DNA of 22,456 nt from Chiloscyllium plagiosum (lineage: Eukaryota), in the NCBI RefSeq assembly GCF_004010195.1, contig NC_057758.1, forward strand, positions 1,170,983-1,193,438, given 5' to 3'. Positions 1,863 to 22,456 of this stretch are shown here, one piece after another. The notes below the pieces were generated by a model that saw nothing but the letters and a program-made list of their open reading frames with translations, ran no database searches and was not told the DNA's origin. Made by a program: the position numbers and the translations under genes. The stretch's first letter is position 1, and the number at the start of each line of letters is the position of its first letter.

Positions 1863-3736
1863 TGGAGACCAGCAGGAACTCGGGTGCTCCCCAACAGAAA
1901 ACCCTGAATGAATCAGAACATACAGAACCTGCTAGAAAAAACAGGGGCGAGGCCTTCAGATCAGGAGACCTACTCAAGTATAAGGAAACCAAGTATGACC
2001 TTCGCAGGGCCATTAAGACAATACCGATCCAAACTAGAGACCCAGACAGACACCCGGCGACTATGGCAAGGACTGAATGGTATCACAGGTTATGAAAGAG
2101 ACAGTGCAAGATAGCAGACGATAACGCATCCCTCCCAGATCGTCTCAACGCCTTCTCTGTTTGCTTTGAGCAGAATTTCGGCAGAGAGCTAACACCTATT
2201 CTGACGAGTCCTGACGAACCTATCCCACCAGAGGTCAGATCAGTTTTCCTTCGTGTGAATCCAAGGAAAGCGATGGCACCAGACGGAGTAGCAGGCCATA
2301 CACTCAGAGCATGCACAGATGAGCTCGCAAAGGTCTTCGCGGACATCTTCTACCTCTCCCTGCAGCAAGCCACTGTCTCTGCTTGTTTCAAGAGGGCCAA
2401 CATCATCCCTGTGCCTAAGAAGGCACATGCAGCGTTTCTCAATGATTACCGTCCAGTGGCCCTATCTTCGGTGGTCATAAAGTGCTTTGAAAAACTGGGC
2501 AAATCCAGCCTCCGCACTACTCTTGACCCACTCCAATCCGCTTTTCGGATCAACCAATCCATATCAGATGCCATATGAATTCCCCTTCCTGGAACATCTT
2601 CACACCAATTACAGCTACATAAGTATCTTATACATTGACGGCAGTTCAGCCTTCAGCACTATTATCTCCTCGAGACTGATAACTAAATTTAGTGATCTCG
2701 GACTAAGCCCCACTCTCTGCAAAAGAATCCTCAGTTTCCTGACTCGCAGGCCGCATTAAGCGAAGATTGGGGATAATATTGCATCCTCACTAACACTCAA
2801 TACAAGAGCAACCCAGAGGTGCGTACTCAGTCCCCTACTGTACTCACAGTGTACCCATGACTGTGTCGCCAAATACCAAACTAATGCTATTTACAAGTTC
2901 ACTGATGACATGACGTAGTCGGTCGAATCTCAGATGGCGACGAAATAGACTACAGACGAGAGATAGAAGACCTGGAGAAATGTGAATTGAGAGCAATCCA
3001 GCTCTCCATGCCGACAAACTCATTATTAACTTTTGGTAGGATGTTGCTCATGCACCCCCTCCCCCTCCAAACACACAAACGCGCGCACACACACACACAC
3101 AAACACAATGATTGCACAGAGGTGGAACGAGTGGATAGTGTCAAACTGCTGGGAGTGTTCATAATCGATAAACATTCTTGGGTACTTCATGTGGACGCAC
3201 TGGTTGCAAAGGCCCAACAACGTCTCTTCTTCCTCAGACAGCTGTGGAAATCTGGCATGACGGTGAATGCCCTTGCCAACATTTATAGGTGTGCCATCGA
3301 GACGATTCTGTCTGGACGTTTCACTGCCTTGTATATCTACTGTACCATTCAAAATCGCAGACAGTTCCACAGAGTAGAGTACTCGACTCAGACAATCACA
3401 AAGGCCAGCCTCCCATTTACGTAATTCATCTACAGGGCCGCCAGCATTCTCAAAGATCCATCCCAACCTGTTTTTCCACAACCTCCACCATCGTGGAGAA
3501 GGTACAGAAGCCTGAACACACGCACCATCTGGTTTTAAAACAGTTTCTCCCCGACTGTTGTTCGAATACTAAATGGCCTCACAAACTCTGCCTGCATCTA
3601 TGTTTTATTTTTTGCCTCTGTTTGTCTATTATTTACTTATCTATGCCACTTAACCATAAGCTCTGCCTGCATTGTTCTCAAGATAAAGCCTTTCACTGTG
3701 CCTCTGTCCAGGTGACAATAGATTCAATTCAATTCA
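1863..3736 (+). mobile_element. Rex1/Babar non-LTR retrotransposon, 5'-truncated and degenerate (RT plus 3' UTR)
   Basis: ORF pieces NPRKAMAPDGVAGHTLRACTDELAKVFADIFYLSL, IIPVPKK...LNDYRPVALSSVVIKCFE, LDPLQSAFR, ILYIDGSSAFSTII; PRGCVLSPLLYS at ~2812-2847; KFTDD at ~2895-2909; VERVDSVKLLGVFI, KAQQRLFFLRQL. Multiple stops and frameshifts; ends in (ATTCA)3 at 3722-3736. Confidence 0.88.
3069..3107 (+). repeat. (CA)n microsatellite inside the Rex1/Babar copy
   Basis: ACACACAAACGCGCGCACACACACACACACAAACACA. Confidence 0.85.
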
Positions 3737-4377: not shown

Positions 4378-6068
4378 TCATTGGTTAAGCAATTTAAGCG
4401 AGATTGTTATTGGATACTTGAACATATCCTTCACCTGATCCCTGCACTTGGTCAATGCAATGGCATAAATACAAGTATGTGTACAACACCGTGTGAGCTG
4501 ATAGACGTATCCAATATCATGTACAAAATAATGCAGCCAGATAGACTTCTGCCCCAATAGTCACGCCCACTTATATATTGAATAGAACATAAAGTTTGCC
4601 CATGACAGTTGGCCGAGATGAGAAATGGTAAAATTATGCATTTTTTCCGACTCTCCATTTTTGGATCTGTTCCATTGTTTCCCCTGCTGAGAGTCTGGAG
4701 TACCCTGCGGGCTTTGTTAGCCATTAGGACATGTCTGACAAACAAAGCATTGAACAGCACAGTCAAAAGAATTGCCAAACACGGGGTTAGAAGATGATGA
4801 GTAATTTCCATTCTTCCCCAGATGTCTGATAATTTAAAACACAATCTTACTTCACAAAACCAAGGAAGGTTCTTTAGTCGTTTCTGACTCGTTAACATAA
4901 AATACCAAAATATATTCTTTAAACAACTTAGCACCATCACTTTTCCCAGTGCCACAGATGTTGATTTCTCGATGCAATATTTACAGTTCAATTTCTGGCG
5001 ACAGATGGCCACAAATTGATCAAAGCTGAAAACAACAGATAGAAGAGTCCGTGGCTGCACAGAAAAGAATGGCATGGATGTTGCACAAAGAGACCTTGGA
5101 GTGCAGGTTCATAGTTACTTGGAAATGGAGTCGCAGGCAGTGAAGAAGGCTTCACTGCCTGCTTTCTATTATTGGTCAGAGTATTGAGTACAGGAGTTAG
5201 GACGTCATATTGTGGATGTTGCCAGAGTTGGAGTATTTGAGCTGTAGGGAGAGGCTGAACAGGCTAGGGCTGCTTTCCCTGGAGCGTCAGTAGTTGAGGG
5301 GTGACCTTATAAAGGTTTACAAAATCATGCGGGGCAAGGATAGGGTAAATAGACAAATTATTTTCCCTGGGGTCGGGGAGTCCAGTACTAGAGGGCATAG
5401 GTTTAGATTGAGAGGGAAAAGATATCAAAGAGACTTTAGGGGCAAAGTTTTCACACAGAGGGTCATACATGTATGGAAGAGCTGCCAGAGGAACTTTTGT
5501 AAGCTGGTACAATTGCAACATTTAAAAGGCATTAGGATGGTATATGAATAGGAAGGGTTTGGAGGGATATGGGTCAGGTACTGGCAGGTGGGACGAGATT
5601 GGTTGGATATTTGGTCGGCATGGATGGGTTGGACGGAAGGATCTGTTTCTATGCTGTACATCTCTAAGACTCTCTGACTCTAAGGAAGGATTTCACAAAC
5701 TGAAACTTGCATATGCAAATATTTGGAATGTACCTCAGCGTCAATTCAAGGATGTTGTCCAGTAGATTCGCCATCTCCACCAAACACCGGGTTACACATT
5801 TGTATAGACTGCATTTTGCCCGAGACAGGATTCCAAACTTTGGAATGTTAACTATGAGAAAGGACTTTAAAACCTGAATATGATAAATCAGTTGAAGAGC
5901 ACATACTCTAATCGACAGCATAGAGAGTGGTTTCAACTCGGAATTAACAGGCACCCGTTTAAGACTGATATGAGGGCGGTTGGCTTTTCTCAGATTCTTG
6001 AGTTCTTCAAACGCCTTTTTTTTTACAGAGCGATATGGAAGCAAGAGTCTTGAATATGTTGGAGTCAT
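4378..6068 (-). pseudogene. Class A GPCR pseudogene, GPR139/GPR142-like (family expanded in cartilaginous fish); two exons; split by a CR1 insertion
   Basis: Exon 2 begins after a CCTTTCTCATAG acceptor (AG at 5853-5852) and reads NIPKFGILSRAKCSLYKCVTRCLVEMANLL...(5851-5683). It resumes below the CR1 as CNIHAILFCAATDSS / FSFDQFVAICRQKLNCKYCIEKS (DRY-equivalent DRF decayed to DQF)...LLTPCLAILLTVLFNALFVRHVLMANKARR...DPKMESRKKCIILPFLISAN / LSWANFMFYS...CCTHTCIYAIALTKCRDQVKDMFKYP, with the stop at 4378-4380. There are at least two frameshifts and an in-frame TGA at 4561-4563. The putative exon 1 (6068-5948) is less certain. Confidence 0.85.
5085..5682 (+). mobile_element. CR1-type (HER1-like) LINE, 5'-truncated 3' end, inserted into the GPCR exon
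   Basis: AGAGACCTTGGAGTGCAGGTTCAT (RDLGVQVH); ORF LRGDLIKVYKIMRGKDRVNRQIIFPGVGESSTRGHRFRLRG...FTQRVIHVW; tail TCTCTAAGACTCTCTGACTCTA; internal deletions. Confidence 0.9.
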
Positions 6069-6262: not shown

Positions 6263-6340
6263 GAAACGTGAACTCGGTTTCCTTCTCTCTCCACAGATGC
6301 TGCCAGACCGGCTGAGCTTCCAAGTTTTGCCCTGATATCA
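6263..6340 (+). mobile_element. Remnant of short hammerhead-headed element (only the GAAACGT half of the core retained)
   Basis: GAAACGTGAACTCGGTTTCCTTCTCTCTCCACAGATGCTGCCAGACCGGCTGAGCTTCC shares the GATGCTGCC(A/T)GACC body with 7235-7331, 11187-11270 and 15229-15458. Confidence 0.55.
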
Positions 6341-7234: not shown

Positions 7235-7331
7235 AATAAACCAGAATGACTGGAGGGACGTTGCAGGTCTGGCAGCATCTAGGGACAGAATAACAGAGTT
7301 AGCATTTCTGGTCCAGTACTCTTCTTCAGTA
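7235..7331 (-). mobile_element. Short hammerhead-headed element, diverged
   Basis: Minus strand: CTGAAGA-AGAGTACTGGACCA-GAAATGCTAACTCTG...AGATGCTGCCAGACCTGC. CUGANGA and GAAA are retained; stem II and the cleavage triplet are decayed. Confidence 0.6.
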
Positions 7332-7619
7332 ACCGGGACTGTTGTCACCACTCCCGTTTTGGACAAGGGATTCAGCTGGCACTGTTTCTATTTCTGCCGA
7401 GTTTGCTATGAGCCTGTGGATTGCGCTGAGTGCGTTCTGCATCAAAGGCTCCTCTCTAGAACAGAACAGCAAAAAAACCAGCAGACCTGTCAGAAACTGC
7501 AAGCAGTTAGGGAGGAAGGATCGATATTTGAGGGATTTCAGACAGAACCTTTGGAGAAATTGATTGTGTTCACTGGTGTATTTACTCATTGTGTTTGTTT
7601 TTGACTGTCAATGGCGTTT

Positions 7620-8000
7620 AGATTAAGTCAACATTCATACAGATCTGGACTAGCCTTGTAAATACGATGGGTGCAAGAGTCTGGAAATCCTGCAGGGAGT
7701 CACTCTCCTCCTGAGTCACCCCAAAAGATTGTCCGCCATCGAAAATGCACAGCCTCAGCACTGTGATGGAATACTCCCACTTACCTGGAAGAATGCAGCA
7801 ATTCAATACTTGGGAAGTTCGCCACCAAGGAGGTCAATGCACCACACTCACAAACATTCATTTCCTTCACCATCTAAACACAGAAGCAGCAGTGTATAAA
7901 ATCCACAAGATGCATAGCAGAAATTCAGCAAAGATCCTTAGGCAGTCCCTTGCAAACCCACAATCACTTTTCTCTGGAAAGAAAATGCAGCAGATATATA
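7620..8000 (+). mobile_element. Old CR1/L2-group LINE fragment (C-terminal RT region)
   Basis: Decayed STVMEYSHL..., NIHFLHHLNTEAAVYKIHKMHSRNSAKILRQSLANP resemble the post-RT (RSxMEY...SLHHRR...YKMH) region of CR1/L2-group LINEs. Confidence 0.55.
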
Positions 8001-8068
8001 GAACACCACACCACCTTGCAAGTTTACTTGTTGGAACTTTGATCAAAATACGATGATAATGATATCGA

Positions 8069-8265
8069 TGAGCTCCACACCCTCCCCACATTTACTGCAC
8101 ACGGTACATCTAAAAGGCTAAGAACATTGTGGGAGACACCACACACACCTCACTCAAACTCTTCTCCCTCTTGCCATTTGGCAGAAGGTACCAGACTACA
8201 CAGCGTCTCATGGCGAGACCGTACAACACTTTCTTCCCAAAGCCATCAAGCCCCTTAACACAGCA
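8069..8265 (+). mobile_element. Second, older Rex1/Babar 3'-end fragment
   Basis: KAKNIVGDTTHTSLKLFSLLPFGRRY...NTFFP, homologous to 3430-3570 of the larger Rex1/Babar copy. Confidence 0.7.
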
Positions 8266-8335
8266 CAATCGGTCTCTTTCCATCTGAACTTGTTTCTTAT
8301 TGCTGCTCGAAAAATATCTCCAAATATTCATCATT

Positions 8336-10875
8336 TTTTGGGTGTAGGTTTGCTCGCTGAGCTGTAGGGTGATATCCAGACGTTTCATTAACTGGCTAGG
8401 TAACATCATCAGTGGCGACCTCCAAGTGAAGCAAAGCTGATGTCCCCTGCTTTCTATTTATATGTTTGTCCTGGATGGGGTTCCTGGGGTTTGTGGTGAT
8501 GTCATTTTCTGTTCGTTTTCTGAGGGGTTGATCGATGGTATCTAGATCTATGTGTTTGTTTATGGCGTTGTAGTTGGAGTGCAATGCCTCTAGGAATTCC
8601 CTGGCACGTCTTTGCTTAGCCTCTCCCTGGGTAGATGTGTTGACCCAGCCGAAATGGTGGGTTTTTTTCTCCGTGTGTAGGGCTACGAGGGAGAGAGGGT
8701 CGTGTCTTTTTGTGGCTAGCTGGTGTTCGTGTATCCTGGTGGCTAACATTCTTCCTGTTTGTCCTACGTAGTGTTTCTGGCAGTCCTTGCATGGAATTTT
8801 GTAGACGACGTTGGTTTTGTCCACGGGATGTACTGCGACTTTTAAGTTTGTTAGTTTTTGTTTGAGGTTGTTGGTGGGTTTGTGTGCTACTAGGATTCTG
8901 AGAGGTCTTAGTAGTCTGGCTGTCATTTCTGAAACTTCTTTGATGTAAGGTAAGGTGGTTAGGGTTTCTGGCTATGTTTGGTCTGCTTGTTGTGGTTTGT
9001 TCTTGTGGAATCTGCGGACTATATTTTTTGAGTATCCGTTCTTCTTGAATATGTTGTATAGGTGGTTCTCCTCTGTTTTCCGAAGTTCGTCTGTGCTGCA
9101 GTGTGATGTGGCTCGTTTGAATAGTGTTCTAATACAGCTTCGTTTGTGTGTGTTGGGATGGTTGCTAGTGTAGTTAAGTATTTGTTCAGTGTTTGTCGGT
9201 TTTCTGTATACGCAGGTTTGTAGATCTCTGTTGTCTGTTCTTTCAACTGTGACGTCCAGGAATGCGAGTTTGTTGTCGGTTTCTTTCTCCTTGGTGAACT
9301 TTAGGCCTTTGAGGGTGTTGTTGATGATATTACATGTCTCTTCTCTTAATTTCGTTTTGTGATGACAAAGGTGTCATTTATGTAGCGGACCCAGATTTCA
9401 GGTTTTATGGTTTGTAGGGCTATTTGTTCTAGTCTTTGCATTACCACTTCTGCTATGAATCCTGATAGTGGAGATCCCATGGGTGTGCTGTTGGTTTGTT
9501 TGTAGATTATGTTGTTGAAGGTGAAGTGGGTGGTGAGGCACAGGTCCACCAGCTTCATGATGTTTCATTGGTAATGTGATTGATGGTGGTTGGAGTGTGT
9601 GTGAGGGTCTCTTCTAAAAGTGTGGTAAGTGTTTCCTTTGCCAGGTCGATGTTGATGGAGGTGAACAGTGCTGTTACGTCGAGTGAGATCATTGTTTCAT
9701 CTTCCTCTATTTTGGTGTTTTTGATGATTTTTAGGAATTCCTGGGTGGTCCTGGGTGGAGTGGATGGAGTGCTGTGACTCTTCTACTAGGTATTTCAGTC
9801 TTGCGTGTATATCTTTGGCCAGTCTGTAAGTTGTTGTTCCGGGTAGTGAGACTATAAGTCTGAAGGGGGCTCCTGGTTTATGGATTTTTGGTAGTCCGTA
9901 GAATCGTGGGGTGTTGGTCCCGTCTGGTTTCATTTTCTGGAATTCCGTCTTGTTTAATTGTCCGGAATTGTGTAATTTTCTTAGGAGACATGTAATTTGC
10001 TTCCTGGTTGTGGGTTCGGGTCTAGCGCCAAATGTTGGTAGGTGTTGGTGTCTGCGATTAGTGTTTTGGCTTTCTCTATGTTCTGTTCAGGATGACAGTG
10101 AGCCGACCTTTGCCTGCAGGTAATATAACGATGTTTTTGTCTTTATTAGGTTTTCTAGGGCTTTCTTTTCTTGTGTGTTCAGTTTGTTTCCTTCCCTCTT
10201 TCGGTTCAGAGTAGGTGCAAACTGTCTGTCTGATCGTTTGTTGTGTTTCTTCCATGAGTTTGTTGTCCTTCAATGTGGTTTCTAATGTCACTAGGAAATC
10301 TTTCTTGACAGTGTCTCGGTAATTGAAATTTAGTCCTTTTACTAGTACCACTTTTGCTGTGTCTGATAGGGTCCGGTCTGATAAGTTCTTTATCCATGCC
10401 CCTGTGTTACCGGTTTTGTCTTTGTGAGTTTGTCAAGTTTTTTCTTCAGGTCCCGCTTTTTTCTGTGTTTGGTGTTTGGTGTTTGGTGTTTATGGCTCGT
10501 TCTACCGCGTCTGTCCATTCTTGATTTGTTGCTGGTTTGAATAACGGTTTTTGGCACGCAATTTCCCGGTTGTATTTTCGGAGTCTGTGGTGGGCGTCAT
10601 TGATTAGTTCTCGGAGCATTCTGCGGCCGCTTCGTTCTGTTAAACTTCTGGCTTGAGGTGTTTTTATCAGCGGTTTGTATTGAAGACATTTTGTCAGTAC
10701 CCGTTTTCTCAAACATTCATGCAGGAAGCACAGTTGTTCGTGGGTGGAACTCTCTCGGATGGTATTCATTTCCCATCTTCGGGCAAGTTGTAGCGTGTTG
10801 TACCCATAGGTTTTTGCCAGGTTTATGAAGGTTTGTAACTCAGGTTGAGGTTTACGGTGTAGGTTTGCTCGCTGA
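8336..10875 (-). mobile_element. Penelope-like element (PLE; Penelope/Poseidon type), near full length, frameshifted: N-terminal domain, RT, GIY-YIG endonuclease, terminal repeat
   Basis: N-terminal HEQLCFLHECLRKRVL; LVKGLNF; ILPAGKGRLTVILN; PRFYGLPKIHKPGAPFRLIVS; TPMGSPLSG; WVRYINDTF (YVDD decayed); GIY-YIG NVVYKIPCKDCQKHYVGQTGRMLATRIHEH...REFLEA. A 20-bp direct terminal repeat GGTGTAGGTTTGCTCGCTGA lies at 8341-8360 and 10856-10875. Confidence 0.93.
8376..8415 (-). ncRNA. Minimal type I hammerhead ribozyme motif in the PLE 3' terminal repeat
   Basis: Minus strand CCA-CTGATGA-T-GTTACC-TAGCCA-GTTAAT-GAAAC-GTC-TGG: complete CUGANGA/GAAA core, GUC triplet, stem I CCA/TGG, stem II with one mismatch, and palindromic ACGT in place of stem III. 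Confidence 0.8.
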
Positions 10876-11151: not shown

Positions 11152-11270
11152 TTGATGAACGGTTTATGCTCAAAACATCAATGTTCCTGATGAAGAGCTT
11201 ATGTCCAAAACATCGATTCCCCTGCACCTCAGATGCTGCCTGACCGCTTGTGCTTTTCCAGCGGCTCATT
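11152..11270 (+). mobile_element. Short element with two tandem decayed hammerhead heads
   Basis: TTGATGAACGGTTTATGCTCAAAACATCA (11152) and CTGATGAAGAGCTTATGTCCAAAACATCG (11187), followed by ATTCCCCTGCACCTCAGATGCTGCCTGACCGCTTGTGCTTTTCCAGC, homologous to 15366-15445. Confidence 0.7.
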
Positions 11271-11470
11271 ATTCTTTTCTGCAGTCCTCTCTTTTTCCTA
11301 ATCTTTCTTTTGGTGTCTCCCTCTTTTTGCTTGTCTCTCCCTCCTTCCTGCCTGAGCACCTTTCTTTTTCTTTCTTACTCCTAGTCGCTTTATGTCCATG
11401 TCAGGGTGCCTCACTTTCTTACAAGCTCTCTCTTTCTCACTCCCCTCTCTCGCGCGCTCTCTTTCTCTTC
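11271..11470 (+). repeat. CT-rich low-complexity tract
   Basis: Pyrimidine-dominated sequence with (CT)n/(CTTT)n runs. Confidence 0.7.
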
Positions 11471-12270: not shown

Positions 12271-12739
12271 CTGTTCATAGGACTGCCTGGGGATATAGTT
12301 GAACTATTCTTTTCTCAACTTTAATCCCCTCTTTTGGATTCCTTGGCGGAACTTGAAAACGATATCCTTGTGATTCGAATGAAATCTCTTACAAATAGGA
12401 TTTGTCCCATGGGGTCAAACTATTGCAGGAGAAAATGGAAGTATAACGAAAAAGTTCTCAATCAGACCCTTTGAAGTTCTGACGCATACATCCACGTGAT
12501 GCTATTTGAGTTCAATTAAATCACAATCACTCAAACCATGGTTTGTCATATTCCTCCTGCATAGTCCTGCTGGAGCGCCCTGCATTCGCTGACAGACTTC
12601 TGACAATGCATCCTATCTTGAAGATCTGTAAGCAGACTTGTTTTTTGTTGTACATGGTACAAACTGCTGCGAATGTGCACCCGTTGTCACTCCTTCCACA
12701 ATCCCGTGAGACTCTTAAAAGAATCTCATCTGAGCTTGT

Positions 12740-14494
12740 GTCCCAGACTTCATTGTTCCAGTCTCTGTTAGCCCTGGTGTTTATTAAACCACTCTGCCTC
12801 AGTCTCAGACATCACTTTCCAGTATCTTTGAGCCCCAGTGATCACTGTTGAAGTCCCTGTCAGTCTCACAGCTGACGGGCCAGGTCCCACTTTCAGTCCC
12901 AGTGCTCACTCTCCCAGCCTTTGTCAATCTCAGGACTCACTTTCCAGGTCTCTTGCTTGGTCCCAGAGCGTACTGTCCAGAATGCTGTGGAGTCCCAGAA
13001 CTCTCTGTCCCAGACTGAATCTTATCCCAAGGGCTCACTGTCCTGGCGTCTACCAGTCAAGGAGCTGACTGGCGCAGTCTCTATAAGTCTCAGAGCTCAC
13101 CATCCCAATGTCATCTTAATATGCAGTACACATTGTCCCAATTACTTTCAGTCCCAGAGCACATAGTCCCAGTCTCTATCAGTGCCAGTACCAGCTCTCC
13201 CAGTCACTGGCAGTTCCAATACTCACTTTCCAGACTCTTGACAGTCCTTATACTCTGTCAACCAGCGATTGTCCGGCCCAGAGCTCACTGCTATAGCGTT
13301 TGGCAGTACCAGAGACAGTTATCCCAGACGCTATCAGTTCCAGAAATCACTATTCCTGTCTGTGTCAAAGATCTTTTCCCCTATTTCCATTTCACTCGCA
13401 GTTATCGTTGTCCCAGTGTCACTCTCGGTCTCAGAGCTCACTGCCTTATTTCTGTCAGTCACAGAGCTCACTGTACCACTGCACACTGTCCCCGTCTATC
13501 TCTCCGATGCAGAGATTATGTGCCAGTCTGTGTCAGTCCCAGTGCTGCTAGTGTAGCCTTTTGTTGTTCCAGAATTCCCTTTCCTAGTCAGTGCCAGTCC
13601 CAGAACTCAATCTCTGAGACGCTGTCAGTCCCAGAGTTCACACTCTCGGTCCTACATCTTCAATTTTCAGGACGCTGTCAGACCCAAAGCTCACTGTTCC
13701 TTTTTCGCTCTCAGTGCCAGGACTCAGGATCCTGATCTGTGTCAGTCCCACTGCTCACTGCGCCTGTCCATGCGAGTCCCAGAGCTCACTATCCCTGTCT
13801 CCTTCTTTGTCCCATCACTTTTAGTTCCAGACCTCATGCTCTCAGTTTCTGTCAGTCCTAGTCATTATCAGTTGCAGTACTCACTTCAACACCTCTTGTC
13901 ATTCTCAGCACTCGCTGCACTAGTGTATGTCATTCAAAGAGCTCACTGCCCCAGTATGATCTCATTCCCAGTGGTCACAATGCCAGTCTCACTCTTGGTC
14001 TCAGAGCTCACTGTCTCAGTCTCTTTTAGACCCGGTACACACTATGAGACTCCCTGTCTCTCTTCCAGACACAGACATCACTATCCAAGTCTCTGTTTCA
14101 CTGAATTCACTGTCAACATACACGGTGAGTCCCACAGATTGCCGTCCCATTCTGTGTCAGTCACAGAGCTCAATACGCCAATTTGTCTCAGTCCCAGACC
14201 TCCCTGTACCAGTTTCACTCTCGGATCCAGGGCTCATTGTCTCGGTTTCTCTCTCAAACCAAGAGCTGACTGTCCACGTCTCTGGTAATCCAAGAATTCA
14301 CTGCTCCAGTCTCGGTAAATCCCAACGTGCACTGTGCCTGGCTGTGTCAGTCACAGAGCTCCTGTTCCAAGCTGTGTCAGTCACAGTGATTGCTTCTTAG
14401 CCCCGTGCTCACTATCTCAGTCTGTGTCAGCCCCAGAGCTCACTGTCCCAGTCTGTCAGACACAGACCTCCCTGTTCCAGTCTCACTCTTGTTC
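12740..14494 (+). repeat. Degenerate ~31-bp satellite array (left block)
   Basis: Recurrent GAGCTCACTGTCCCAGTCTCTGTCAGTCCCA units, with a 33-bp variant containing CTCACTCTCAGT. Confidence 0.9.
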
Positions 14495-15580
14495 TGAAGG
14501 TGATTTCGACACCTCTCTGATAAATGAAATCAAAGCACCCAGACGTTAGAACCTTGCCTCTGTAATCTGACAAAGGAGTGTGACAAGGTAATAGCCTACT
14601 TCTCACCATTCGTCTGTTTTGAATAATTTAACAGAATTACTAAAATCCGGACAAATTCCTGACAACTGATCAAAATTCCACTGGAAAGAATGTCATTCAG
14701 AGTAAATACAAAGTCCCATTTATATAAACGGAAGTAATAAGAAAATAATAAATGAAAATATAATCCGTCCACGTTCTCACAGTCTATGTCTTCTCCGCTT
14801 TAACTTGAATCTTCCTTCTGCTGAACTGACATCACAAACGCAATTATTTCGCTGATTTTTCTCTGAGGATTTTGAGCTGGAAATATTGCGATATCTTTGA
14901 TGGTTAACAATTCTAGAAGGTTAACAATTTTGTGTGAAGGCAGGTTTGTCTCTCAGATGGTGGATTTGTTTTCTTTGCAGCTGAAGTTTGGCTCTTCCCT
15001 CAATTGAGTTGCCTCATTCCCGATTTTCAAAAGAACACTTCCTTAGACACGATCGATGATGCAACAAAGACTCATGATATGATTGATTTTAGGCTGTAAT
15101 ACCATGAATCGGCGTTGGATTTCTGTGTGTTTGTTTTAAATTATTCGGCCAAATTCAAAATTGCCGTCTAAACAAGCTTAAGGCATCCATTAACAAAACC
15201 AATTGTTCCATGTTTCCATTTTAGAACTAGGAGAAAGTGACGACTGCAGATGCTGGAGATCAGAGCTGAAAAATGTGTTGCTGGAAAAGCGCTGCAGGTC
15301 AGGCAGCATCCAAGCAGCAGGAGAATCGACGTTTCGGGCATAAGCCCTTTTTCAGGAAATTTTTCCTGAAGAAGGACTCATGCCCGAAACGTCGATTCTC
15401 CTGATCCCTGGATGTTGCCTGAACTGCTGCGCTTTTCCAGCAACACATTTTTCAGCTCCATTTTAGAACTGTGTACTTTCTCCACCTGATTCCTTTAAGT
15501 GATAAAAGCATTATCTCTTAAAGGGGGCATACGTTGCTTTGCAATTCATGATTATTTTATAAAAGTATTTAGCACTTTCA
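14495..15580. mobile_element. Probable solo LTR (AT-rich insertion interrupting the satellite)
   Basis: Sharp compositional boundaries; starts TGAAGGTG and ends CACTTTCA (TG...CA, 7/8 inverted match); ~0.84 kb once the nested palindrome is removed; no clear TSD. Confidence 0.45.
15229..15458. mobile_element. Palindromic short retroelement with two oppositely oriented hammerhead heads and a 14-bp target-site duplication
   Basis: Inverted arms ~15263-15358 and ~15363-15458; + strand CTGAAGA-A-GGAC-TCAT-GCCC-GAAAC-GTC at 15366-15393; TCCATTTTAGAACT at 15215-15228 and 15457-15470. Confidence 0.85.
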
Positions 15581-18500
15581 TCTCCAATGCTCACTGTTTC
15601 ACTCTCACTCTCAGTCTCAAAGCTCACTGTGCCTGTCTATGTCAATCTCAGTGTTCTAGTCTGAGATATTCCTGAAACTTAGTGTAATTGTGTGTTGGGG
15701 GGTGGGGGCACAGAGCTCCCGACCTCGGTCATAGTCGCAGATCTCACTTTTCAACTCCGTCAGTCCCAAAGCTCGCTGACCCAGTCTGTGGCAGTTCCAG
15801 AACTCAATGTCCCAGTCTTACTCTCAGTCCCAAGGCTCAGTGGCCCAGTCTGTGCCAGTCCCAGACAACACAGGCCCAGCATCTTTGAGTCGCAGAAATT
15901 GCAGTCCTGTTCTCACTCGCATTCCCAGATCGCAATAATCCACCCTCTGTCCGCCCCACAACTCACTGTCAAATTCTTTCACTTACAGAGCTCTCTGTTC
16001 CAATCTCAGTCAGTCCGACGCTTCATTGTCACTGCCTCAATCAGCCACAGAGAGCACTATCCCAGTCTTTGTCATTCCTAGAGCTCAATGTCCAGGTGTC
16101 TGTGAGTCCCAGAGATCACTGTCTCATCCTAAATCATCCCGAGACCTCATTTTCCCAGTCTCTGTCAGTCCGTGTTCACTGTCCCAGGATGTGTCAGTCC
16201 CAGAGCGCAGTGCCCCAGTCTCATTCAGTTCCAGAGATCGCTCTGTCAGTCTCTTTTGGGCCCAGTGCTGACTGTTTCAGTCTCTTTCCATCTTAGAGCT
16301 CATGGTGTCTGTCTCATTCTCCCTTCCTCTGCTAACTCTCCAGGTTTCTGGGAGCTCTCTCCTACATTTTTCCCAGCCGTCTGTCTCAGTCCCAGATCAC
16401 ACTGGCCCAGAAACGTTCAATTCCAGTGCTCACTGTCTCGGCTTCACTCTTAATCCCAGAAATCACTGTCCCAGATTCTCCCAGTCCCACAGCCTAATGT
16501 TACAGGCTTATTCAGTCCCAGAACTTGTTGTTCCTGTCTCTGTGAGGCCGACAACTCAATGTCCCAGTCTCACTCTCAGTCGCAGTCTCACTTTCTGCCT
16601 CGAGTTCATTGTCCCAGTCTGTGCTCCAATCTGTCATTCTCACACCTCACTGTCCCTGTCTCTGTCATTTCGAGGACTCACTGTCCCAGTCTCACGCAAT
16701 CCCAGAACTTACTGCCCCAACCTCGGCCAGTTCCAGGCCTCATATTTACATTCGGTGACAATTCCAGAGCTTACTGCTGCAGTCTGTGACTGTCCCAGCG
16801 CTCACTGTCCCCATCACTGTCAGTCCCAGACCTCACAGTCTCAATCTTTTTTTTTTAAATTTTCAGAGGTCACTGTCACACTCTCACTCTCAATCCCAGT
16901 GATCACTTTCCCAGTCTCACTCTCAGATCAAGAACCCATTGTCCCTGCCTCTTTCATTGAAAGAGCCCATTGCCCACTTTCAGGCTCACTTTCAATCCCA
17001 GTCCTGAGCGCCCAGTGATTCTCAGATCTCACTGGGACAGTCTCTTTCTGTTCCAGACCATACTGTCTCACTCTTGTGTCCCATCGTTCAACACCACAGT
17101 CTCATTCTGGGTCCCATGTGCTCACTGCGACAATCACCTTTTGTCAGGACTTGATTGTCCAAAGTCCATATCATTTCCAGTGCTCATTCTTTCAGATTCT
17201 GTCAGTCACAGTGTTCACTGTCCCAGTCTTTCTCAATCCCAGAGCTCGTTCTACAAGTCTCACGGTCAGTCTTACAGCTCTTTCACAGAAGCCTCTGTCA
17301 ACTCCACTTCTCACTGTCCCACTTCCTGTCCGTCTGTGTGTTCACTCTCCCAGTCACTATTTGTACTACAACTCACTATCCTAGTCTGGGTCAACCCCGC
17401 AGCTCATTGTCGCAGTCACTGTCAGTCTCAGAGGTAACTATCCCAGTCTCTCTCTCGTCTTAGTGCTCAGTGTCCAAGTCTGTCAATCACAGAGCTCACC
17501 GTCTCAGTCTGTTTCTGGTACAGAACTCACTTTCACAGTTTGTGTCAGTCGCAGAGCTCACTGTCATAGTTTGTGTCAGTCCCAGTGCTCATTGTACTAG
17601 TCTGTGTTCGTCCCAGATCTCGCTAGTCCAGCCTATTTCAGTTCCAGAGTTGAAATATCCCAGTCTGACTCGCTGTTGCAATTTCATTCTCGATCCCAAG
17701 TGCACAATGTCCCAATTGCTTTCAGTCTCAGATCTCACTCTCCAAGTCTCTGACTGCCCTAGCTTTCACTCTTCCCCACTACATTCCTCACTCTCCCAGT
17801 TAGTCTCAGTCCCAGAAATCACAGCCCCAGTCTATTTCATTCCCAAATCTCAGTGAATCAGTCTGTGACGTACCCAGATCTTACTGTTCTAGTCTCTTTC
17901 AGTCCCACAGCTCACTGTCCCGGTCTCACTTTCGGTCCCAGAGTTCACTGCCCCACTTCCTCCCAGGGCCGGCTTGCTGATCCAGTCTGGCTCTCAGTCC
18001 GAGGTCTCAATGAACCAGTCTGTGTCAGCCCCAGATCTAAACTGGCCATGTCTCTTTCAGTCCCAGAGCTTGTTGTCCCAGTCTCACTTTCGGTCCCACA
18101 ACTCACTGTACGAATCTCAGTCTCGGTACAAGAAATCATAGTCTTGGGCGCTGCCAGTTCCACAGCTCACCATTCCAATCTGTGTCAGTCCCGGAGCTCA
18201 CTGTCACAGTCTTTGTCAGTTCCAGAACTCACTTACCTAGCTCCTGTCAGTCCAAGTCCTCACTCTTCCAGTCTCTCTTAGTCTCCGTGTTTACTCTCCG
18301 AGTTTCTCGTCAGTCCCGGAGCTTATTCCGCCAGTCTCTGTCAGTTACAGTGCTTGGTGTCCCAGTCTATTACAGTCCCAGAGCTCACTGACCCAGCGTG
18401 TGTCAGTCCCATATGTCACGTCCACTGTCTTTCAGTCTCAGAGCTGACTGTCCCAGTCTCTGTCAGTCTCAGAACTCACTGCACCAAATCTTACTATGAT

Positions 18501-18723
18501 CATCTCACACTCGGTCCCAGAGCTCACTGTCCCCAGACTGTCAGTCTCACAAATCGCTGTACCACTCTGTGTCAAAGCCACACCTCATTGCACCACAGTT
18601 GTGTTCAGCCTCAGAGCTTACTGTCCCAATTTCTGTCAGTCTCAAAGCTTACAGTCCCTGACTGTGGCAGTCGCAGAGCTAACTGTGCCACTTTGCGTAG
18701 TCTCAGGGCTCCATTGCAATCTC
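15581..18723 (+). repeat. Degenerate ~31-bp satellite array (right block, runs into the gap)
   Basis: Same unit and orientation as 12740-14494. Confidence 0.9.
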
Positions 18724-19223
18724 NNNNNNNNNNNNNNNNNNNNNNNNNNNNNNNNNNNNNNNNNNNNNNNNNNNNNNNNNNNNNNNNNNNNNNNNNNNNN
18801 NNNNNNNNNNNNNNNNNNNNNNNNNNNNNNNNNNNNNNNNNNNNNNNNNNNNNNNNNNNNNNNNNNNNNNNNNNNNNNNNNNNNNNNNNNNNNNNNNNNN
18901 NNNNNNNNNNNNNNNNNNNNNNNNNNNNNNNNNNNNNNNNNNNNNNNNNNNNNNNNNNNNNNNNNNNNNNNNNNNNNNNNNNNNNNNNNNNNNNNNNNNN
19001 NNNNNNNNNNNNNNNNNNNNNNNNNNNNNNNNNNNNNNNNNNNNNNNNNNNNNNNNNNNNNNNNNNNNNNNNNNNNNNNNNNNNNNNNNNNNNNNNNNNN
19101 NNNNNNNNNNNNNNNNNNNNNNNNNNNNNNNNNNNNNNNNNNNNNNNNNNNNNNNNNNNNNNNNNNNNNNNNNNNNNNNNNNNNNNNNNNNNNNNNNNNN
19201 NNNNNNNNNNNNNNNNNNNNNNN
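18724..19223. other. Assembly gap (500 N); true size unknown
   Basis: Run of N; the round number suggests a scaffolding placeholder. Confidence 0.98.
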
Positions 19224-20775
19224 TCCACATCCTTTTGGTAATGTGACGAGCAGAACTGTACGCAGTAGTCCAAATGTGGTCGAATCAAAGTCTAAAACAA
19301 CTGTAATATGACCTGTCAACACTTGTGCTTAATACTCCGACCAATAAAGGAAAGCATTCCGTATGCCCTCTTTACCACGCTACTGAGCCGCGCTGCCACC
19401 TTGGGAGAATAATGGACCAGAACACCCAGATCTCCCTTAACATTAATTTTCCTGAGGACTTTTCATTTTACAGTATAGGTAGCTCTTGAATTGGATTTTG
19501 CAAAGTGCATCAGCTCATCAGCTCACATTTGTCCAGATTGAATTCCACCTGCCATTTCTCTGCCAAACTCTCCAGTTCAACTGCATTCTGATCTATTCTC
19601 TGGAAATCTCCTTCACTATCTGCTACTTCGCCAATCTTATTGTAATCTGCAAACTTGCAAATTCGATAACCTCCACCTTCCTCCAAATCTTTCATGTATA
19701 CCACAAACAGCAGTGGCCCCAGCACGGATCGCAGTGGAAAATCAATAGTCACAGGTCTCCATTTTGAGAATATCCCTTCCACGACTACTCTGTGTCTCCT
19801 GTTACCCAGCCATTCTCTGTCCATTTAGCTAGAACAGCCTGGATCCAGTGCGATTTCACATTATCCTTCAGCCTACTACGGGAAAATTTATCAAATGCAT
19901 CACTGAAGTCCGTGTGTATGACAACTACGTCTCTTCCCTCAATCAACTTTGTCACCTCCTCAAATAATTGTAAGAAATGAGATTCTCCACAAAACCATGT
20001 TTCCTATCACTGAGTATCCCATTTTCTTCCAGATGGGAAGCTATCATTTCCCTCAATAACTTCTCTAGCAGCTTCTCTAACACTGACGTCAGGCTCAAAG
20101 GTCGGCAATTGTCTGCATTATCCCTGTTATCCTTCTTAAACAAGGCCACAACATTAGCAATGGTTCAGTCCTCTGGGACCTCACCCGGTTTCAAGGATAC
20201 TGCAAAGATATATGTTAAAGCCCATTCCAGTTCCTTTCTCGCTTCCCTCAGTAACTTGGGGCAGATCCCGTCCGGACATGGGATTCGTCCAGCTTTATGC
20301 CCTTTAGAATACCCAACGATTCCTTCCTCCTTATATCGCCAAATCCTACAGTAATCAAAGATCTATCTCTAAACTCAACATCCACCATGTCTCTCTCCTC
20401 GGTGAATTTATTTAGAATCTCACCCATTTTCTCTGAATCCGCGCATACATTTCCTCCTTTCTCCTTGAATGGGCCACCCCATTATATAGTTGCTCTCTTG
20501 CTCAGAAAATATGAATACAATGCTTTCGGATTTTCCTTCACCCTGTTTTCTAAGGATATATCATGATCCATTTTCCCACTCTTAATTCCACGTTTCTAAT
20601 TCGTCCTACATTCCCGATATTCTTTCAAATCTTTATTATCTTTAGTGGCCTAGACTTTACATACACATCTTTTTTTCCTCTTAGACAGTTTCCCAATTCC
20701 ACCTGTCATCTATGGTTCCCGAATTTTGTTATTTTTATTCCTCATTTTCACAGGAACATATCTCTCCTGAACATT
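19224..20775 (-). mobile_element. CR1-type LINE ORF2 (RT region), degenerate
   Basis: Minus-strand peptides ALFKKDNRDNADNCRPLSLTSVLEKLLEKLLRE...ILSDRKHGFV; WLGNRRHRVVVEG...SVLGPLLFVVYMKDL...ICKFADYNKIG; IRPHLDYCVQFCSSHYQKDV; many disablements. Confidence 0.92.
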
Positions 20776-21871: not shown

Positions 21872-22456
21872 TATGTAGACAGGCCAATAAGAGGTGAGGC
21901 CATACTGGATTTGGTTCTGTGTAACGAACCAGGCCAGGTGTTAGAATTGGAGGTAGGTGAGCACTTTGGGGAGAGTGAACACAATTCGGTGACTTTTACT
22001 CTAGTGATGGAGAGGGATAAGTGTGCACTGCAGGGCTAGACAGGTCAATAAGAGGTGAGGCCATACTGGATTTGGTTCTGTGTAACGAACCAGGCCAGGT
22101 GTTAGAATTGGAGGTAGGTGAGCACTTTGGGGAGAGTGAACACAATTCGGTGACTTTTACTCTAGTGATGGAGAGGGATAAGTGTGCACTGCAGGGCAAG
22201 AGTTATAGCTGGGGGCAGGGAAATTATGATGCGGTGAGGCACGACTTAGGATGCGTGGCTTGGAAAAGTAGGCTTCAAGGGAAGGGCGCAATTGATATGT
22301 GGAGCTTGTTCAAGGAGCAACTATTGAGTGTCCTTGATAAGTATGTACCCGTCAGGCAGGGAGGAAAGGGTCGTGTGAGGGAGCCGTGGTTTAATAAGGA
22401 ATTGGAATCACTTGTTAAAGGGAAGAGGGCGGCCTATGTAAAGATGAAGCGTGAAG
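21872..22456 (+). mobile_element. Young CR1-type LINE ORF2 (end of APE endonuclease and linker), 5'-truncated, runs off the window; contains a 161-bp tandem duplication
   Basis: YVDRPIRGEAILDLVLCNEPGQVLELEVGEHFGESEHNSVTF (LD and SDH-type APE motifs), then an open frame KSYSWGQGNYDAVRHDL...MWSLFKEQLLSVLDKYVP...EPWFNKEL to the window end. Confidence 0.9.

Follow-up and report, generated by a model that had tools for sequence, protein, structure and literature searches.

The Penelope-like element

The window, meaning the whole 22,456-nt stretch of DNA analysed here, carries on its minus strand a decayed Penelope-like element whose parts are collected in Table 1. Given that the proteins P0086 and P0031 tile the element by tblastn in several frames interrupted by stops, and that the reverse-transcriptase motif reads YIND instead of YVDD, this copy is old and dead. 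The element is collinear with P0086 and P0031, and the domain order is that of a single ORF with a reverse transcriptase followed, at the C-terminus, by a GIY-YIG endonuclease; an RVT_1 domain is found in P0086 and P0239. The Pfam GIY-YIG match within the open frame at 8396-8971 (E=0.0029) lies under the curated cut-off. Carpet-shark proteins are the closest named homologs, followed by flatworm proteins, and the family appears to be a high-copy one of cartilaginous fish. The clade names Poseidon and Cercyon are assigned provisionally from domain order and relatives, the accompanying tree being one of the endonuclease region without named references. As a separate observation, three shark host proteins (P0005, P0020 and P0029; a CUE domain protein 2, a MAP3K7 isoform and another) contain a piece of the element's endonuclease in predicted isoforms, through either exonisation or a gene-model artefact.

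Table 1. Coordinates of the element, its hammerhead motif and the overlapping codons within the window
Feature	Position	Strand	Basis or remark
Decayed Penelope-like element (Penelope/Poseidon group), nearly unit length	8336..10875	-	tblastn, end repeats, read depth
5' copy of the 25-nt repeat	10851..10875	-	element start
Broken reverse-transcriptase region (frameshifts, stops)	8972..10480	-	YIND vs YVDD in relatives
Open C-terminal frame: linker, GIY-YIG endonuclease, tail of ~40 residues into the hammerhead	8396..8971	-	
Hammerhead ribozyme motif, minimal type I	8376..8415	-	sequence, descriptor search, folding
Core C3-A9 (CUGAUGA), intact	8412-8406	-	Thr-Asp-Asp in the endonuclease frame
AUG of the hammerhead, probable ORF start in tandem arrangement	8404..8406	-	register with P0086 and P0239 N-termini; PAc position
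Extra U between A9 and G10.1	8405	-	sequence
Stem-loop II, 18 nt (7-bp stem, 4-nt loop)	8387..8404	-	folding
UAG stop of the RT-endonuclease ORF	8396..8398	-	U in uppermost stem II pair, AG in loop II
G12-A15.1 (GAAA)	8386-8383	-	sequence
Palindromic ACGU replacing stem III	8383-8380	-	sequence; same as min-HHR design (PMC4209133)
Site of one-base shortfall against most family sequences	8368..8370	-	read comparison
3' end of pseudo-LTR, repeating the 5' coding region	8336..8360	-	25-nt repeat with 10851-10875

The family was sampled from four public runs (X2, X11, X9 and X21; 24 runs were listed) over 8250-8850, with 7478-8628 contigs aligned per run and depth falling away below 8334. Family members extend ~20-30 nt past the 8336 end, as a Penelope tail, and in three runs the loose ends before 8336 run on into the sequence found after 10851, which fits a Penelope tail or a tandem junction. 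For comparison, the pseudo-LTR of Adineta Pen2a_Av holds the first 12 ORF codons, or 22 with the tail (Arkhipova et al. 2013, PMC3846280), against ~24 codons plus tail in the 3' repeat of the window; in the sections of that paper available, no ribozyme is considered and no overlap with the 3' end of the ORF is described. At its 5' end the element starts ~18 nt downstream of the counterpart of the predicted cut site, and an upstream hammerhead is absent there. We have only this one observation of a 5' end 18 nt within the predicted cleavage product and do not treat it as evidence for cleavage.

A minimal hammerhead motif in the pseudo-LTR

The hammerhead motif lies within the pseudo-LTR of the element and possesses the full set of type I core positions (C3-U4-G5-A6-N7-G8-A9, G12-A13-A14-A15.1 and U16.1-H17). 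The strands of stem II are 8404-8398 and 8393-8387 around a loop at 8397-8394, C17 is 8379, and the predicted cut site falls at 8379/8378. Stem I is open-ended and short, with 3 bp (8415-8413 with 8378-8376) and a pairing probability of ~0.2, and by analogy with related ribozymes the ACGU at 8383-8380 is a putative dimerisation site. A preliminary description of this DNA had proposed a minimal type I hammerhead of the Penelope kind, with a palindromic stem III and a complete catalytic core, written over the last codons and stop of the ORF; the present analysis bears out all of these points.

The motif closely resembles the min-HHR that metazoan Penelope-like elements carry (Cervera and De la Pena 2014, PMC4209133). 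In the available portion of that work these ribozymes, like the one described here, sit in the pseudo-LTR of an element with RT and GIY-YIG domains and combine a CUGANGA core with an unpaired base before G10.1, a 7-bp helix II, a short helix I and a 4-nt palindrome in place of helix III. The extra U between A9 and stem II, noted in the preliminary description, is present (U8405) and, rather than being unusual, belongs to this published consensus. In Fig. S3 of the same paper, an 18-nt stem-loop II like the one here is found in the rows for Clonorchis (1) and Schistosoma mansoni (1); no row of that figure is from a shark. A palindromic, very short stem III is also a feature of the small Penelope-like hammerheads of Lunse, Weinberg and Breaker, which are reported to cleave as dimers, as cited in PMC6765202.

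A descriptor for minimal hammerheads has a single match across the whole window. An Rfam scan returned no hammerhead among its 15 matches at E<=10, the motif having no helix III. In 200 dinucleotide shuffles, any match to a relaxed descriptor appeared in 4 and an equally good match in none. Although the Rfam result taken by itself would suit a chance likeness, we reject this reading, to which we give next to no credence, on the basis of the shuffle test and a stem II that is restored in family sequences (see below), and the pseudo-LTR is moreover the published location of the class (PMC4209133). The hammerhead motif at 8376-8415 is real.

Stem II and the probable loss of cleavage in this copy

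Within the window copy, C8400 faces U8391, a mismatch in stem II, and the closing 10.1-11.1 pair is G-U rather than G-C. At 8391 a base able to pair with C8400 accounts for ~99% of contig depth in three runs and for 58 of 60 RNA reads, so that the mismatch is private to this copy. The consequence for the helix is considerable: the predicted energy of stem II is +0.5 kcal/mol in the window copy compared with -6.2 kcal/mol with the family base at 8391, and the pairing probability is ~0.13 compared with 0.87-1.0. Position 8387 (11.1) is absent from the 40 variants listed, beside which there are 145 further ones, and G-U is probably the common family state there; the same pair occurs at 10.1-11.1 in several rows of Fig. 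S3 of PMC4209133. One of the 40 listed variants (with 145 more in existence) falls inside the 40-nt motif, which for ~500 nt covered is about the expectation with a slight deficit and, given the variants beyond those listed, carries no weight as a measure of conservation against the flanks.

The preliminary description had allowed that this copy, or its family consensus, could self-cleave. With regard to the copy itself these data point the other way. Free folding of its sequence does not yield a hammerhead, the fold being no better than that of shuffles (z=0.76), and the descriptor search found no second, partner hammerhead in the window, unlike the arrangement of the Penelope-like hammerheads said to cleave as dimers (PMC6765202). 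The min-HHRs are themselves described as inactive as monomers and weak as dimers (PMC4209133). Given the broken stem II and the lack of a partner hammerhead in the window, this copy most likely no longer cleaves. The complete set of core bases is what speaks for an active ribozyme at this site, but against the private C-U mismatch, the unremarkable fold and the missing partner we regard activity of the window copy itself as improbable.

In the RNA run X21, depth is continuous over the cut site without a listed pile-up of read ends. This is a poly(A) single-cell run of which about 2% was read, giving 392 reads, 350 of them <95% alike and mostly from diverged copies. Most first mates map to the plus strand, an indication of sense RNA. 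Poly-T loose ends next to A-rich tracts hint at internal priming, which makes the read-end evidence from X21 weak in either direction.

A stop codon inside the ribozyme

The ORF at 8396-8971 terminates in ATDDVT-stop. The preliminary description had placed the stop codon in the loop of stem II, and this is correct for its AG, while its U pairs at the top of the stem. To compare ORF ends we used the 142 of 234 collected proteins with a complete endonuclease domain. Four of them end inside the motif, namely P0017 (TDEVS) and P0018, P0031 and P0197 (TEDVT), and five read through it (P0015, P0019, P0025, P0079 and P0081), P0015 and P0019 being shark proteins without the stop. P0086 and P0239 terminate before any such motif. 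The overlap of the ORF end with the ribozyme, noted earlier for the single copy, is thus also seen in related shark families, and from these alignments the stop overlap is a family trait, with P0017, P0018, P0031 and P0197 ending at an equivalent place. That it arose as an accident of decay in the window copy was rejected on the same ground.

From the end of the domain to the core the tail measures 47, 50, 51 or 74 residues; it is poorly conserved, and its frame is constant. Three shark subfamilies, with 57-65% identity to the window protein and on separate tree branches, have tails of 47, 50 and 51 residues, and P0025, from a distant family, enters the core in the same frame after 74 residues. 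With a preceding tail of poor conservation and varying length, the earlier suggestion that the C-terminal codons are under protein constraint finds no support. By eye, the translated Schistosoma mansoni (1) row of Fig. S3 in PMC4209133 agrees with 19 of 20 residues of the P0025 tail, so that published sequences, as well, contain an ORF that extends into the ribozyme. On the endonuclease-region tree the stop-in-ribozyme label is not clustered beyond shuffles (209 of 500 as low).

We also searched for DNA copies. With protein queries, viral contigs gave no confirmed locus, whilst genome contigs gave 1 and 10 loci, all distant; metagenomes gave 137 confirmed loci, of which 80 were kept, all of them distant (24-53% identity). 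The 91 distant loci, mostly invertebrate elements, contain 42 descriptor matches. Downstream of the protein match there are 23 sense-strand hammerheads (at 22 loci, some of them duplicates), and none of the 23 overlaps the end of the ORF, which lies 133-1310 nt upstream, a distance that early stop codons in decayed copies could lengthen. On this count we rejected the stop overlap as a general trait of Penelope elements. With 0 of 23 overlapping and the ORF ending 133-1310 nt ahead of the ribozyme, the superfamily does not require such an overlap, which may reflect packing.

Concerning these loci themselves, L002-L091 are metagenome and bacterial-genome contigs with animal Penelope elements, that is, host DNA. 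Almost every hammerhead found in them has a 6-nt palindrome and a position far downstream of the ORF, and some form inverted pairs. DNA-pattern searches gave 0, 0 and 3 matches, the three being hammerhead-like cores with ACGU in bacterial genome bins (L092 362-395, plus strand; L093 640-673, minus strand; L094 4001-4038, plus strand), and L092 and L093 have common flanks. Carrying no Penelope protein match, they were set aside; possibly they are bacterial minimal hammerheads, or else chance.

A probable start codon inside the ribozyme

The preliminary description overlooked an AUG in the same ribozyme bases. A9, the extra U and G10.1 spell AUG at 8406-8404, so that this codon is an automatic by-product of the core together with the extra U. 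It lies 8 nt upstream of the UAG and in another frame, and start, stop and cut fall within 31 nt. Other AUGs in frame with it are found at 8409-8407 and 8388-8386. In the window copy the AUG frame reads MMLPSQLMKRLDI and then departs from the protein frame, since one base fewer at 8368-8370 puts the AUG out of frame with the N-terminus of the ORF. Most family sequences carry the additional base: 54426 of 61399 depth in X2 and 53696 of 59920 in X11, with 5638 of 18482 in X9, where many contigs clipped at this point show the same in their loose ends. In the RNA run X21 it is found in 23 of 41 reads, plus 11 of 50 at the neighbouring position. The extra family base joins the AUG to the frame reading AQRANLH, where the N-terminal coding region begins (10874).

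Protein sequences agree with this register. P0086, a full-length relative of 832 aa and the best match in the profile search, begins MMSSRLVTKRL, its residues 9-11 being KRL and 17-19 AQR, and its N-terminal register is that of the AUG frame of the window, as is that of P0239. By eye, the translated Clonorchis (1) row of Fig. S3 in PMC4209133 agrees with 13 of the 15 first residues of P0086. In a codon-compatibility test, run on proteins that are mostly fragments or distant, the hammerhead was compatible with 2 of 201 distinct N-terminal Met windows (the P0086 type and P0239), both with an 18-nt stem-loop II; internal Met windows passed in 5 of 1503 cases, with a stem-loop II of 15 or 16 nt and none of 18. 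That 2 of 201 fit means that the start is not evident in most of the collected relatives, which counts against reading the AUG as a start. The N-terminal frame, used as a query, gave nothing from 95 candidates, and in the distant loci the hammerhead AUG opens only 3-18 codons of unspliced sequence. On these comparisons we infer that the AUG at 8406-8404 is the start of the ORF of the next unit.

A precedent exists in PAc, the hammerhead of the Poseidon element of Anolis carolinensis (Frangieh et al. 2024, PMC11167929), whose ORF opens where stem II begins and whose cut lies 26 nt downstream. The element described here has the same layout, with the probable ORF start at stem II and the predicted cut just downstream, 25 nt after the start codon, and likewise has a tail at the 3' end of the element and an AT-rich insertion site. 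An ORF end inside the ribozyme is not stated for PAc in the text of PMC11167929 that was available. Overlaps with ORF start or end are likewise not discussed in the main text of PMC4209133, as far as available, where the word 'codon' is absent, and a recent preprint (bioRxiv 10.64898/2026.07.22.740005), which sampled one chondrichthyan, has neither 'start codon' nor 'stop codon' in its accessible text. We found no statement of a Penelope ORF ending inside its hammerhead in the literature covered, which left out most subscription papers and Repbase reports. Of the two overlaps, the one at the start looks to be the more widely conserved.

A model for the seam between tandem units

These data allow us to propose an arrangement for the family. 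We consider it likely that the motif is an ordinary Penelope minimal hammerhead in the 3' pseudo-LTR of a dead copy, at the seam between tandem units and overlapping both a start and a stop codon. The ORF of one unit ends at the UAG in stem-loop II, and that of the next would start at the hammerhead AUG. The ORF would then be 11 nt longer than the unit, so that protein could be made only from transcripts beginning in an upstream pseudo-LTR. Judging from the Anolis Poseidon element and from Schistosoma, the ribozyme would be weak and require either a second copy pairing through ACGU or the protein of the element, and the cut, 28 nt from the A of the AUG, would detach the start codon from the downstream ORF. 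Cleavage would leave a unit-length RNA no longer able to make the full protein. The simplest view of the stop inside the ribozyme is that a tail under loose constraint, in a compact element, runs into it as the first stop. Ribozymes of this kind have been published, as has a start overlap, for PAc; the layout of start, stop and cut in 31 nt is a family trait. The copy is a fossil with a ribozyme of known kind, and its value lies in the layout of the family. The role of the hammerhead in Penelope elements is called unclear in the available part of PMC8557442, and start, stop and cut within 31 nt offer a compact test of whether cleavage controls translation rather than unit-length processing. 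In practical terms, the protein termini T(D/E)DVT-stop and M-x6-KRL flag the hammerhead from protein sequence alone.

The overlap could instead be a selected control device, in which the 5' half of the ribozyme is melted by ribosomes that terminate at the UAG and might then resume at the AUG by termination-reinitiation, so that translation delays cleavage, and cleavage or protein binding converts the message into a template. Three shark subfamilies keep the frame into the core despite their different tail lengths, as does the distant P0025 family, the stop and start are 8 nt apart, and cleavage of PAc is assisted by, and needs, its protein (PMC11167929). However, the shark families share common ancestry, and the position of the stop is not fixed: P0086 and P0239 stop earlier, in the P0025 family the ORF continues through the motif, the stop is missing from P0015 and P0019, and the hammerheads of the distant loci lie clear of the ORF end. 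We hold selection for such a device to be unlikely.

To a similar degree we doubt that the motif is kept for a role other than cleavage, for example as a protein-binding site, as start-codon context or as a promoter, and is catalytically silent in vivo. Such a role would accord with the low activity of min-HHRs in vitro (PMC4209133) and with PAc, for which insertion in vitro does not need cleavage and is unaffected by core mutants, and RNA-seq shows no ends at the cut (PMC11167929); the lack of a read-end pile-up at the cut site in X21 and the success of Naiad elements without canonical hammerheads (PMC8557442) would fit as well. It is harder to reconcile with the retention of the core, the 18-nt stem-loop and the palindrome in both sharks and flatworms. 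Between families the stem changes on both sides, as seen by eye in Fig. S3 of PMC4209133 and in the form of codon compatibility. In addition, the C3G/G8C double mutant of PAc partly restores cleavage, as in a true hammerhead (PMC11167929).

A bolder version, which seems to us slightly less probable again, would make the hammerhead a translation switch throughout a shark-flatworm branch. In this case the ribozyme's extra base would create the start codon, the ORF would circle the unit and end within the same ribozyme 8 nt past its own start, ribosomes would restart on tandem or circular RNA, and protein-assisted cleavage would remove the start and commit the RNA to reverse transcription. Compared with these proposals, we retain the ordinary minimal hammerhead at a tandem seam as the preferred reading.

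Other features of the window

Several further repeats and gene remnants were recorded. Decayed frames of a non-LTR retrotransposon occupy 2096-3424 on the plus strand, with a Pfam ALKBH8_N match at 2909-3421 (E=2.4e-07), a domain that we take to mark the end of Rex1/Babar-type elements. On the minus strand, a 218-codon frame at 4452-5108 resembles by eye a pseudogene fragment of a seven-transmembrane receptor, without a Pfam match at E<=0.01. Short frames at 5294-5551, 19510-19824 and 22021-22455 look by eye like remnants of CR1-type retrotransposons, the first two lacking a Pfam match.

A degenerate satellite with a 31-nt unit and ~80 copies in register covers 992-1683 and 12735-18570 and accounts for many spurious open frames rich in Ser, Gln and Val. 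Within 15263-15458, two head-to-head copies of a ~97-nt repeat, 91% complementary and 2 nt apart, would form a long hairpin; the Rfam microRNA matches there are far under the cut-offs and reflect this hairpin. The repeat, probably a SINE or the end of a LINE, has a third, diverged copy at 11184-11281, and 6286-6319 and 7263-7289 hold shorter pieces of it. An N gap of 500 bases lies at 18724-19223. Near the end of the window, two tandem 161-nt copies at 21876-22197 are 99% identical, as the result of either a recent duplication or an assembly overlap.
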